Below are positions 37,752-42,007 of a stretch of DNA of 54,110 nucleotides, piece after piece. The stretch is from a virus (Duplodnaviria > Caudoviricetes). The notes under the pieces are model-generated. The model was not told the origin of the DNA, did not search any database, and was given only the letters and a program-made list of their open reading frames with translations. A program made the translations under genes and the position numbers. The stretch covers positions 1 through 54,110 of IMG/VR virus record IMGVR_UViG_3300012924_000012; one strand, 5' to 3'. Positions within the stretch are counted from its first letter, which is position 1; each line of letters starts with the position of its first letter.

Positions 37752-39809
37752 TTATCCTGGCGCTTGTGCCTGGGCGTCTTGCATCTGTTGTGGATTCACT
37801 GCACCTGGCGGTTGCTGGCCTGCCTTTGGTGGAGCCGGTACAGCCCCAGGGCGCGGTGTTCCTGCTACTCCTGGGGGGTTACTACCTCCTAAGCCTCCCG
37901 GCGTGCCTGGGTAGCCCTGTGGTGCGGCCTGTTGCTGCTTTTTCTGGATCGCTTGGATATGTTCTTGGATATGCTGGCGGAATTTCCCGTTTAGGTCGCC
38001 AGTTACTTGCGCGCCTTGTTGGTGTTCTTTGATATGTTCAACATCGTCATCAAGTGGGGAGACAATCGCAGGAATATTATTGACCATGAATTCATTTTCA
38101 ATCGAGGCCGGTACAGAAATTTTAGTACGTTCATCGATCAAGACGTTTTGTGCCATAGTCGGACCTAAAACAGCTTCATTTAGGAAATCAATCATCGGAC
38201 CAAGATCAAGTTTTCGACCATTTAGAACCTGCGGCGGCATACCACGTAAAACATTCATCCAAGAGATCATTTGTTGATTGTTCTGCGCACCCATCGCTTT
38301 ATCTGCACCTAACCATTTGAACCAATACCGATGTCCAACCTGTTGCGGTGGAATTTTTTCAATAGAACTCTGTACGCCATGCTCGCCATCAATCATGACG
38401 GCTAGTTCTTCATCACGGAATTGTAAATCTAGGTCATAAAACCATTCCATGATTCGATTCATAATTCCAAATTCAAAACGCTTAACTACATCTCCAATCG
38501 TTGCCATTGCTTCTTGGCTTTGTGCGCCAATTGCTTGTGCATTTTTCTTTCCTGACGGTGGACGACCAAGCATTATTTCATTTACATCCATCGATTCCAT
38601 GATCTGAGCTTTGATCGCGCCCTTAATCGTCAAAGCATGTTGATAAAGTGGCGGGAATTCCACTACCTTAGTGTCATTTGGATTGGTAGACCAGACAGCA
38701 GCCATTGCCATAACCATAGACGAATATTGTGGATTCTTTAATGGGTCTGTCATCACGATTGGCATAAGAGAATACATTGCCGAATCCATTCCCATATTAG
38801 TAATATCGTTTAATTCATATTGCAATGGTGCGACATTCTTAACTTTAGAGCGCCCCCAAAATGAACCAGCAACTTTATCTACTGGCTCAGAAATCATCGG
38901 GATTTTTTGGTTCCAATAAGGATTAGCAATGATTCCTAGTACATTATCCGGTCCACCAAGATATATAATTGCTGGCTTCTTTTCACCATCAAGTTTTAAC
39001 TTGGCAAATACCATATAAATCAAGCCAAATTTTTGACCTGATTTCAATTTAATCCCGGCCTCTGCTGTCCTAGCTTTTTCAGCCCAAATTACTTTTTCAT
39101 CTCCTGCATCTTTCGTCAAAAGCTTGACTTGGCTCTTGAGAAATATTCCTTCCTCGACCATATCGTCAATTGCATCGGTTGTTAGCCGCATTGCGACTGC
39201 GACGATTTCGGCATCTTGAATATCTGAGACAGTTGCTGGAAAGACCCATAAATCTTGAGCCGGAATAACTGTTAATTCTGGTCCTTCATCAATGATTGTT
39301 TCAGTCTCTACATCGGGATAATCCTCTGTCGTACCGTCAAGCGTCTTCTGAACTTTTCGCGTGATTTTCCGTTCTTTACGCTTCCATCCGGGCATAACGG
39401 ACCATTGCCCCTCGATATCACCGTTTAGAAATAAAGTAGATGCTACAGCCCGGAGGTTCGTATCTTTGATATACCGTTGCAAGATAGATAGCGTTGCTAT
39501 TGGCATGTCACCCTGTTCTGAAACTACCTCAAGGTTATTCCCAACATTGGGAAAGCACATCCCAGTAAAGCGTTTTCTACGCGCTTCTAATGCATCATGT
39601 ACGATAGGCTCAAATATTTCTGAATCACCGTCATATTGCTGATTATCGCCAAGCTCGCAGTTATAGATATCCCAGCATTCTTCTATTGAATCATTTTGAT
39701 CTTTCTTTTCCTCACGAAATCCGGTAATTATTTGATCGTAAAGCCTTGCGCATTTCTCTTGCAATTGCTTATTCGATGCATAATTTTTGATTTTTTCTTC
39801 AGCCATCAT
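37752..39809 (-). CDS. Portal protein
   Basis: 685 aa after terminase; SFWGRS...PLQYELN; DDDVEHIKEH; Q/P tail. Confidence 0.85.
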   Translation of the reverse strand: MMAEEKIKNYASNKQLQEKCARLYDQIITGFREEKKDQNDSIEECWDIYNCELGDNQQYDGDSEIFEPIVHDALEARRKRFTGMCFPNVGNNLEVVSEQGDMPIATLSILQRYIKDTNLRAVASTLFLNGDIEGQWSVMPGWKRKERKITRKVQKTLDGTTEDYPDVETETIIDEGPELTVIPAQDLWVFPATVSDIQDAEIVAVAMRLTTDAIDDMVEEGIFLKSQVKLLTKDAGDEKVIWAEKARTAEAGIKLKSGQKFGLIYMVFAKLKLDGEKKPAIIYLGGPDNVLGIIANPYWNQKIPMISEPVDKVAGSFWGRSKVKNVAPLQYELNDITNMGMDSAMYSLMPIVMTDPLKNPQYSSMVMAMAAVWSTNPNDTKVVEFPPLYQHALTIKGAIKAQIMESMDVNEIMLGRPPSGKKNAQAIGAQSQEAMATIGDVVKRFEFGIMNRIMEWFYDLDLQFRDEELAVMIDGEHGVQSSIEKIPPQQVGHRYWFKWLGADKAMGAQNNQQMISWMNVLRGMPPQVLNGRKLDLGPMIDFLNEAVLGPTMAQNVLIDERTKISVPASIENEFMVNNIPAIVSPLDDDVEHIKEHQQGAQVTGDLNGKFRQHIQEHIQAIQKKQQQAAPQGYPGTPGGLGGSNPPGVAGTPRPGAVPAPPKAGQQPPGAVNPQQMQDAQAQAPG

Positions 39810-39997
39810 TTTTTCCGGGAGGTCGTTGTCGGTTTTTTCTCAACTATTTTTTGCATTTCTTTGATTTTCTTTTCCGCCTCACGTTTAGCCGCAGCCATGC
39901 GAGTACGATCTGCTTCAATTTCTTTGGCACGGGAAAGCGTATGCATATCCTCTATCGCTCGCCACTTTGCCTCATCAAATGATTTACTCGTTGCCAT
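39806..39997 (-). CDS. Small conserved basic protein
   Basis: KWRAIEDMHTLSRAKEIEADRTRM. Confidence 0.6.
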   Translation of the reverse strand: MATSKSFDEAKWRAIEDMHTLSRAKEIEADRTRMAAAKREAEKKIKEMQKIVEKKPTTTSRKK

Positions 39998-40736
39998 ATC
40001 GTCTTCCCGGTCTTGAGGTTCTATACGAAATACCACCTTGCGTTGTCGTGTAATGTCCTGATTTTTCATTTGAATATGAAAGCATTGGTATTGCTCTAAC
40101 GATATATCTCATGCAATCAAGAGCATGATCGTTTTTCTTAACAATTGCGCCGTTTGTATCCCTGCGATAGAAAGGAAGTTCTTTTAAGAGATTGCTTAGA
40201 GTATTGAATATTTTCAATCTTCCAGATGTCATACGTTGATAAACATCATATATCCCAGCCTCCCTAGCATTATCTGCCAATGCTAGTTTTAGACCTTCAT
40301 TTCTGTATAACTGAATCAACTTTTCGCCGTCAATTTGTGATTTACCCTGAGACGCTGGATCAATAAATCCTGTCATTTCTCCGCGAGCTTTGATTGCTGA
40401 AGCATGGACGGCAGGCTCTGCCATTCCTTGATAATGTTCGGAATAGAGATAAAGTACATCAGATTCACGGTCTAATGCAGCCCATACAGCAGCCGTCTTA
40501 TTCCAACCAACGTCTAGGGCATAACCTTTAGGCCAATATTTCGGCAGTTCAAACGGTTCAACTATTAATTCTTGTATGTCAATTGGATATACCTTTCCTG
40601 AACCGATGGAAGGAATACCTTTTGCCCTGGCTTCACGTTCATGAACAGGAATTGATTCCCAAAGTTCCTTTTTAGTCGCTTCGTCAAGGTGTAAAACCTG
40701 ATCCCAATTGCAAGTTATATAGAATTTACCTAACAC
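39984..40736 (-). CDS. terL: Terminase large subunit, C-terminal part (ATPase lid plus nuclease)
   Basis: ITCNWDQVLHL, ARAKGIP, ALDVGW, IDPAS, NDHALDCMRY; in frame with 40749-41447. Confidence 0.9.
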   Translation of the reverse strand: MLGKFYITCNWDQVLHLDEATKKELWESIPVHEREARAKGIPSIGSGKVYPIDIQELIVEPFELPKYWPKGYALDVGWNKTAAVWAALDRESDVLYLYSEHYQGMAEPAVHASAIKARGEMTGFIDPASQGKSQIDGEKLIQLYRNEGLKLALADNAREAGIYDVYQRMTSGRLKIFNTLSNLLKELPFYRRDTNGAIVKKNDHALDCMRYIVRAIPMLSYSNEKSGHYTTTQGGISYRTSRPGRRYGNE

Positions 40737-40748
40737 AATGGTCTCGCA

Positions 40749-41447
40749 TCATTTTTTAGGTTCACCGCAAGTACCATGTTCCATAAACGACTGTGTCACC
40801 TCTGTCATGCCGAGCATTGGTGTAAAAGTTAGGATCACTAGGCCGTTTGTCGTCATGGTCCTGATGAGACCTTCAGAATAGATCGGCATAGGTGGCTCCT
40901 CATCTAACCATACGCCCTGTTGCTCTGTACCTTGCCAAGCCTCGCGGCCCTGGTCATAGGACTTTAATTGCACAACTGAACGACCACCAGAAAGATGCTT
41001 TACATAAATATTCTCAACAGCATCTGGAACACCACGTTTATTAGAGGTATCTATCAATAAATTACCCGGAATTAGACCTGTACCAAAATCGCCAATTTTC
41101 CCAAGCAATTTAAATTGAATGATGTCCCGAACGGTGGTTGCGGTATCGCCTCCAATCCACCAGGATACCGGCTTGTCAAACCGCCTTCCTATCCACCAAT
41201 CTGGATAACGCCCCGTTAAATGAAGGACCGTTTCGTAACCGCCAATGGATTCTGTCTTGCCAGTCCTGTTACCTGCGAGAACGAGCCGTTCCCGATAGTG
41301 TTTTCCAGCTTCAAAGAAAGCCATATGAACCGGATACCCGGCCCGGTTCTCAGGAGTGACGTAGAAGGTATCGATCTTGTTACGCTGCTTACGCCGCTCT
41401 AGCTCCCGAATAATGGTTTCGGTGGCATAGCGGTCTTCAGGACTCAT
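40749..41447 (-). CDS. terL: Terminase large subunit, N-terminal ATPase part (P22 gp2-like)
   Basis: Walker A AGNRTGKT, Walker B VWLDEEPP, coupling motif LTFTP; ends at TGA 40751-40749. Confidence 0.9.
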   Translation of the reverse strand: MSPEDRYATETIIRELERRKQRNKIDTFYVTPENRAGYPVHMAFFEAGKHYRERLVLAGNRTGKTESIGGYETVLHLTGRYPDWWIGRRFDKPVSWWIGGDTATTVRDIIQFKLLGKIGDFGTGLIPGNLLIDTSNKRGVPDAVENIYVKHLSGGRSVVQLKSYDQGREAWQGTEQQGVWLDEEPPMPIYSEGLIRTMTTNGLVILTFTPMLGMTEVTQSFMEHGTCGEPKK

Positions 41448-41896
41448 GCAATGACGCCTGAACCAACCGCAAAGGCACCTTGGATAGTGACAGCCGGTGT
41501 AGTTACGTTCGTTACGGTGCCGACGAAGACCCGCATAGCTGCGATTGGAACCGTAGTAGTCCCGGATAGCGTTACGCCAGTCCCTGCGGCTAACGTCACT
41601 GCGCCCGAGCTTGTATTGACGTTTACATACATAAACATGAACGTCATCCCTAGAAAGACGCCTGGACCAATCGCATTGATGATGTTCGTAGCTGTATCTG
41701 TAGTTGAAGTTACCGCTGCCGTTGCGCCTGAACGAACATAGATACCTGCATCCATTTGCTGGCCGGTCAAAGTGTCAGTTACACCAGCAGATGCTAAAGA
41801 AGCAATAGCCGGGTTGCCGGACTGAAACAATGCAACAACATCGCCGAAGGCTGGGATTGCGCCTTGATTACCAGGGATACCATGAGAGAAAGCCAT
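41444..41896 (-). CDS. Capsid decoration-like protein
   Basis: GGAG RBS; TTDTATNIINAI; VTLAAGTGVTL. Confidence 0.6.
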   Translation of the reverse strand: MAFSHGIPGNQGAIPAFGDVVALFQSGNPAIASLASAGVTDTLTGQQMDAGIYVRSGATAAVTSTTDTATNIINAIGPGVFLGMTFMFMYVNVNTSSGAVTLAAGTGVTLSGTTTVPIAAMRVFVGTVTNVTTPAVTIQGAFAVGSGVIA

Positions 41897-42007
41897 TTTG
41901 AATACTCCAAAAAAAAAGCCGCTCAAGGCGACTTGTACATCATTCGTAATTGCGTTTTCACAATTTCTATGCTACCTTGATAGCTCTCAACTTACTTGGA
42001 GTTACCT

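Follow-up and report, generated by a model that had tools for sequence, protein, structure and literature searches.

The large terminase (TerL) is the best-studied viral motor protein and a standard marker gene of tailed phages, and to our knowledge it has always been treated as a single chain. The solved and studied members of the P22 gp2/Sf6 gp2 type are single polypeptides. TerL is a known target of intervening elements, and excerpts of two reports describe inteins in the TerL of Salmonella phage Marshall (PMC3853055) and of the Vibrio phages JA1/VchO139-I (PMC3670811). Such inteins, like introns, restore one polypeptide. Among other phage genes, one report describes nrdA of Aeromonas phage Aeh1, an essential enzyme gene that the homing endonuclease gene mobE splits into two open reading frames (ORFs), both retained, where relatives have an uninterrupted gene (PMC3045599). 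Excerpts of further reports describe a phage DNA polymerase gene split with small ORFs between its parts (PMC10580990) and a split-intein 'fractured gene' arrangement (PMC2677866), and those of PMC4837284 and PMC5418858 deal with inteins or other split genes and not with a TerL that stops and restarts. Searches of a limited literature collection turned up no account of a TerL that stops and restarts within its ATPase domain. Already known are therefore intein-interrupted terminases, split phage genes and TerL gene pairs that stand uncommented in public records. Here we describe a TerL encoded by two adjacent ORFs on the minus strand of IMG/VR record IMGVR_UViG_3300012924_000012 (the whole stretch analysed, referred to as the window; this complete virus record measures 54,110 bp and has a terminal repeat of 123 bp).

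The window TerL is of the same family and fold as P22 gp2 and Sf6 gp2 (Terminase_6N plus Terminase_6C), but its chain is cut in the stretch that links the helix after TFTP to the final strand of the ATPase core (Table 1). Taken together, the comparisons below make it very probable that this large terminase is encoded by two neighbouring cistrons and acts as an enzyme of two chains, with the C-terminal piece (C piece) translated from the GTG at 40736. Instead of a single polypeptide, the gene encodes 232 and 250 amino acids separated by an in-frame TGA. As the sequence-only reading had noted, both ORFs lie in one frame, which reads ...GTCGEPKK-TGA-CETI-(GTG)LGKFYITCNW... across the junction. 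The N-terminal piece (N piece) carries Walker A (GKT, residues 63-65), Walker B (WLDEEP, 180-185) and TFTP (207-210), all invariant or nearly so in the TerL alignment, and it ends 22 residues past TFTP with the tail ...EHGTCGEPKK. The C piece contains the last beta-strand of the ATPase core (read-through residues 241-246), the lid helices (256-276) and the RNase H-like nuclease domain. The ATPase motifs and RNase H-like nuclease domain that define a large terminase were thus recovered between the two pieces, by Pfam, by a match to a solved nuclease, by fold comparison and by the motifs themselves.

For domain searches, the two ORFs were joined into a read-through protein with the stop written as X. 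Terminase_6N covered residues 56-290 of this protein (E 6.1e-13) and Terminase_6C was also detected (E 1.8e-09); when the ORFs were searched separately, Terminase_6N was found in the N piece (E 2.9e-09) and Terminase_6C in the C piece (E 6.3e-10), and both domains score above the Pfam cut-off. The P22 gp2 nuclease structure 4dkw matched by sequence (E 2.8e-16) and aligned only from residue 281. An AlphaFold model of the read-through protein, built from a 21-sequence alignment (mean predicted local distance difference test score, pLDDT, 83), recovered the D6E, Sf6, T4 and P74-26 TerL structures in a fold comparison, with a target-normalised template modelling score of 0.84 for 4dkw_A. The model places helix 216-224 before and strand 241-246 after the break, which falls in a loop (residues 230-238) of pLDDT <50. 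The span of Terminase_6N, the start of the 4dkw alignment and the model agree in placing the break inside the ATPase domain and not at the nuclease linker, as had been proposed from the letters. The model is consistent with a variable surface loop that would tolerate a cut.

The window's own clade was compared at the protein level, using clusters of 90% identity. An N-piece search restricted to proteins of 127-406 amino acids returned 2563 clusters at E<=1e-10, and the nine best (P0002-P0010; 82-86% identical, 232-235 residues) have G-x-x-G-x-P... tails that end no more than 3 residues from the window's stop. A C-piece search gave 815 clusters, of which the six nearest (P0121-P0126; 68-92% identity, 250-252 residues) begin M-[LPQK]-G-K-[FY]-Y at the window's GTG codon. 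Since nine clusters share the tail and stop and the start is conserved among the C clusters, the split is a stable state of the window's clade and not a private mutation. In a tree of N parts, the window, the nine clusters and one unsplit locus, L002, form a single supported clade (99/95) without internal resolution, and the sister clade (L003 and P0011, the latter an unsplit fragment) is unsplit.

More distant relatives are split at the same place. A scan of viral contigs (IMG/VR) gave 80 terL loci, 28 of which have the gene cut in precisely the window's loop. Fifty-six matches span the break site, which in these loci is a variable loop, often shorter than that of the window and filled with gaps or unrelated residues. 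The two halves are adjacent in 17 of the 28 split loci and lie in different frames in all 17; the junctions are ATGA, TTGA or GTGA (six loci), TAATG or TGATG (six), an 8-nucleotide (nt) overlap (three), a 23-nt overlap (one) and a 1-nt gap (one), so that 16 overlap by 1-23 nt. The other 11 have 100-1520 nt between the halves, usually with same-strand ORFs. Wherever the halves are separated by genes or differ in frame, they must be translated separately, and with all 17 adjacent pairs out of frame, readthrough cannot be the general mechanism. In a tree of 81 N parts, the split was confined to a 55-row clade that contains the window (29 of 55 rows). A blastn search at a distant setting gave no nucleotide match to deposited phages, and a protein-level search of the same phages gave 441 records, all below 60% identity.

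The position of the cut was also sharply defined in larger samples. Among 120 listed N pieces, 114 end 11-38 residues past the T[FY]TP motif, a distribution far too sharp for contig truncation, and the 120 listed C pieces start 9 (51 pieces), 10 (8) or 14 (20) residues before a conserved W, the window's piece starting at 10. An exhaustive HMMER search of 1.84 billion representatives yielded 1782 matches at E<=1e-10. A BLAST-based count sorted the best 150 of these into 65 that stop within the loop, comprising 39 plain N pieces and 26 that carry a long insert further upstream, 65 of full length, 17 intermediates and three of other kinds. A metagenome scan found 80 loci, with 25 being copies of viral loci: eight are split in the loop, 66 are unsplit, four are incomplete and two cover the site and contain stops (L083, which duplicates the split locus L004, and L137, where the stop lies elsewhere). 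In species genomes, 7 of 20 loci are split, and the split prophages include those of the isolates Sphingomonas melonis AS2.3 (with an ATGA junction), Azospirillum cavernae, Azospirillum agricola and Roseomonas acroporae. In GenBank MW202785.1, two adjacent coding sequences are both annotated 'large terminase protein'. Along its full extent the N piece (window 40752-41447, minus strand) matches phrog_31467 (E 1.7e-57), a family labelled 'unknown function', and it matches the general TerL family phrog_2 far more weakly (E 2.3e-12). The family phrog_31467 appears to consist of TerL N pieces.

Table 1. Coordinates of the split terL gene and its junction in the window
Feature	Position	Strand	Basis or remark
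TerL N piece ORF	40749..41447	-	232 aa + TGA stop; Terminase_6N, phrog_31467, nine related clusters
In-frame TGA stop closing the N piece	40749..40751	-	Unchanged in the contig of run X3
Spacer TGC GAG ACC ATT, 12 nt, from stop to restart	40737..40748	-	Sequence
GTG start codon of the C piece	40734..40736	-	Same codon starts six related C-piece clusters
TerL C piece ORF	39984..40736	-	250 aa + TAA; Terminase_6C, P22 gp2 nuclease match
Hairpin drawn in the sequence-only reading	40709..40748	-	Foldable; stability within the shuffled range; function unsupported

We propose that ribosomes would translate the N piece, from the ATP-binding core to TFTP and the next helix, and stop at the UGA (40749-40751). 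The C piece would be initiated at the GTG (40736-40734), 12 nt past the stop, most likely through re-initiation by the terminating ribosome, so that the two pieces would come out in roughly equal amounts; the alternative would be weak initiation at the GTG independent of the upstream ORF. The chains would then join non-covalently, the first strand of the C piece completing the sheet of the N piece. Re-initiation over distances like 12 nt is established. Translational coupling through overlapping or adjacent stop and start codons (termination-reinitiation) usually links different proteins of a complex, whereas here it would link two halves of one enzyme domain. Junctions of exactly this coupled kind (ATGA, TAATG) occur in 12 of the 17 relatives with adjacent halves, and the window has its stop near the downstream start, with a gap of 12 nt. 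The gene is cut into two ORFs where relatives are continuous and both pieces are kept, and we infer from sequence a gene in pieces expressed as a translationally coupled pair, whose ribosomes re-initiate at the GTG and whose products assemble non-covalently into an active enzyme. The sequence-only reading had offered, as one of three options, a split terminase made by hairpin-gated coupling; the comparative evidence supports the split and the coupling, and the gating by a hairpin found no support.

Several observations weigh against a two-cistron TerL. The Shine-Dalgarno element before the GTG is weak, consisting of a GAG triplet 6 nt upstream; in a crude comparison that speaks neither for nor against it, the duplex of the region upstream of the C piece with the anti-Shine-Dalgarno sequence (-3.0 kcal/mol) equals the median of 89 unfiltered ORFs, spurious ones included. 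The two ORFs of the window share a frame with four sense codons between stop and GTG, which makes a readthrough product physically possible. The nearest locus compared at the DNA level, L002 (76% identity), is unsplit and lacks about 33 nt of the loop, and L003 (62% identity) is also unsplit and also lacks the roughly 33 nt present in the window. In the tree of 81 N parts, well-supported branches force at least five changes between split and unsplit states, and parsimony gives ten. Since L002 and L163, a locus from a species genome, are unsplit at 76%, the split state is evolutionarily labile.

The shared frame gives the best-surviving alternative, in which leaky or programmed readthrough of the UGA by a near-cognate tRNA makes a full-length TerL that is functional, or functional alongside the two pieces, in an amount dependent on the translation state of the host. 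The unsplit TerL of the near relative L002, presumed functional, fits this idea as well. However, a shared frame is expected by chance in one case out of three, and the relatives argue the other way: 17 of 17 adjacent pairs are out of frame and 11 loci have other DNA or genes between the halves, and thus the family works without readthrough. In agreement, the six close clusters retain a start codon for the C piece at the matching position, no residue is conserved at the site and the hairpin that follows the stop is not significant (see below). Leaky readthrough is possible but unnecessary, and we regard it as improbable. We likewise hold little expectation for a combined scenario in which the window's subclade keeps its halves in one frame to allow a small, host-dependent share of readthrough, the ratio of single-chain to two-chain enzyme tuning packaging. 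More broadly, the two-chain TerL may be a distinct and undescribed motor architecture, whose cut has been repeatedly made and healed and has served as a landing site for extra genes.

A recent nonsense mutation, leaving a defective phage or a decaying gene, would fit with the unsplit state of L002 and with the position of the stop inside the lineage-specific stretch of about 33 nt. We aligned contigs from four public runs to the terL gene. The X1 contig, which may come from the source sample, is identical to the window across terL. In X3, an independent freshwater sample from a different year, a 413-nt contig over 40510-40922 has three differences from the window and none in 40709-40760. In X4, one contig ends at 40734 and the next begins at 40748, leaving the 12-nt spacer unbridged; this break at 40735-40747 could reflect strain polymorphism in the spacer. 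The TGA at 40749-40751 is therefore a genuine stop, present in X1 and in the independent X3. Strain variants in X3-X5 occupied 21 positions. Synonymous changes account for 11 of the 14 in the N half and six of the seven in the C half, or 17 altogether. As 6 of the 7 variants after the stop are synonymous, the downstream part is under purifying selection, and both halves are intact, with purifying selection on each. The identical junction in an independent sample, the nine split clusters at 82-86% identity with their conserved tails and restart codon, this pattern of substitution and the complete genome with terminal repeats make a nonsense mutation very unlikely. The third option of the sequence-only reading, a nonsense mutation or a sequencing error, was refuted by the same X3 junction, shared clusters and variants.

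The option that had drawn most attention to the locus was selenocysteine insertion or programmed readthrough at the UGA, making packaging a switch that responds to the host. In its selenocysteine form, the UGA would be decoded by host SelB acting on a selenocysteine insertion sequence (SECIS)-like hairpin directly after the stop. An in-frame UGA is followed by a stem-loop that can be drawn, as in the fdhF-type bacterial SECIS, and, numbering from the U of UGA, U17 and A21-G22-G23-U24 do occur as claimed. The 43 nt from the UGA fold with a minimum free energy (MFE) of -8.1 kcal/mol, compared with a dinucleotide-shuffle mean of -5.33 (standard deviation 2.16; z -1.28), and 21 of 200 shuffles were as stable or more stable. 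In a 111-nt context the hairpin form was lost (z 0.09). The hairpin is thus foldable, as had been said, but it does not exceed chance. Bacterial SECIS elements require a bulged U17 and exposed loop bases G23 and U24 for SelB contact. The fold as drawn (-6.8 kcal/mol) has U19 as its bulged U, and in the MFE fold the bulge is U20 and both U17 and G23 are paired, so the SECIS-like geometry did not hold. Rfam searches of 40500-41000 at E<=10 gave two chance snoRNA matches and no other family.

The nature of the site also argues against selenocysteine. The UGA falls in a disordered, variable loop (pLDDT <50) that is gapped in most relatives, and the expected Cys or Trp at this position was not found, as the 56 spanning loci are gapped or variable with no conserved Cys or Trp. 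A tRNA search of the window found no tRNA of any kind, hence neither a selenocysteine tRNA nor a suppressor tRNA, TGA is a frequent ordinary stop, and relatives keep the split in other frames. The window therefore differs from an fdhF-type SECIS in geometry, significance, nature of the site and conservation; we consider selenocysteine insertion extremely unlikely, and the packaging switch is not supported, given the variable site, the non-significant hairpin, the lack of any tRNA and the different frames of relatives. At present the hairpin is evidence for nothing and a recoding signal is not indicated. It does include the GUG start of the C piece, and for this reason a role in coupling is conceivable and the hairpin may have one. 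An artefact of sequencing or assembly, or a changed code that reads TGA as an amino acid, has the bare presence of the in-frame stop in its favour and nothing more, and can be dismissed, together with a TGA-recoded phage genome, given the TGA in X1 (possibly the source) and independent X3, its use as terminator by 43 of 105 non-overlapping (greedily chosen) ORFs, a coding density of 96% under the standard code (table 11) and no coherent long ORFs gained in the window when TGA is read as sense.

The DNA found between the halves of relatives bears on the origin of the cut. Insert ORFs from four loci (six ORFs) were scanned for Pfam families. In L058 (3690-4113, plus strand), a 141-residue ORF between the TerL halves matches T5orf172 (24.0 bits) and MUG113 (23.6 bits), both above cut-off, and is a nuclease-related gene of mobile-element type residing in the cut; no Pfam family was found in the other scanned ORFs of this set. 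Three same-strand ORFs (305, 108 and 73 residues) without a Pfam family occupy the gap of about 1520 nt in L069 (1490-2994, plus strand), and L059, L068 and L057 have one or two small ORFs between the halves. The 41-residue insert ORF of L057 resembles a membrane peptide. Compared with its close relative L051, which has a TTGA junction, L004 (1127-1245) has about 118 extra nt exactly at the junction, where a 138-nt stretch folds as one long hairpin (-43.4 kcal/mol, a value given without a shuffle comparison); the extra DNA may be a small mobile element.

The endonuclease-like gene in L058 and the extra DNA in ten other loci suggest that mobile DNA was inserted at the loop and that the insert was later lost. 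Aeh1 nrdA/mobE offers a precedent, since there too an essential phage enzyme is kept as two ORFs at a site continuous in relatives (PMC3045599), and a mobile-element-type gene likewise lies between the pieces in some of the window's relatives (L058). In contrast to Aeh1, the window has 12 nt and no gene between its pieces, and an endonuclease-like insert is found in one of the 11 insert-bearing loci, namely L058, with six insert ORFs from four of these loci scanned. Together, these comparisons point to the TerL cut as a recurrent site of fission, fusion and gene insertion.

Splicing elements do not account for the window. Nothing splices there, and the junctions of the window and of the 17 adjacent relatives are too short for introns. 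A group I or II intron was rejected for the window, with its 12-nt spacer too short and no Rfam match in the region, and no Rfam intron reached the gathering score in the 11 insert-bearing loci. A split intein was also rejected, the piece ends being too short for intein halves and neither window half containing a Hint domain. Some N pieces elsewhere do carry inteins: of five long N pieces scanned, three (P0247, P0298 and P0342; 590-890 residues) have LAGLIDADG or Hint intein domains upstream of the split and end in the split loop, combining an intein and the split within one gene.

About a third of the related viral loci, and 65 of the best 150 representative clusters, encode TerL as two chains with the cut at a single loop of the ATPase domain. 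If the two chains work as proposed, the motor can bear an interruption between the core that binds nucleotide and the part formed by lid and nuclease, which would provide a natural experiment against which to judge models of force generation and ATPase-nuclease switching. Annotation and marker-gene pipelines would mis-size or miss a split terL, as with the 'unknown function' label of phrog_31467. For the claim of a selenocysteine or recoding switch, the outcome is deflationary, with evidence for neither.

Other observations concern individual relatives and the surroundings of the gene. In L036 (query residues 168-181) and L137, a frame change or stop lies outside the common loop, and these disruptions may be sequencing errors or decaying copies. 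In an Acidobacteria assembly (L173:74-1586), the N part of TerL extends across the loop and the strand after it, as far as query residue 246; the same ORF then goes on for 266 residues of unrelated sequence. Among species genomes, the closest unsplit relatives are L163 (a Pseudomonadota metagenome-assembled genome, 76%) and L164 (Glaciimonas immobilis DSM 23240, 62%), and their taxonomy is a hint that the clade's host is proteobacterial and possibly betaproteobacterial. No small terminase was recognisable adjoining TerL in the window. The ORF directly upstream of the N piece (41444-41926, minus strand) overlaps it by ATGA and has only a weak match, to the head scaffolding family phrog_673 (E 7.4e-06). 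Downstream of TerL lies the portal ORF (37752-39809).

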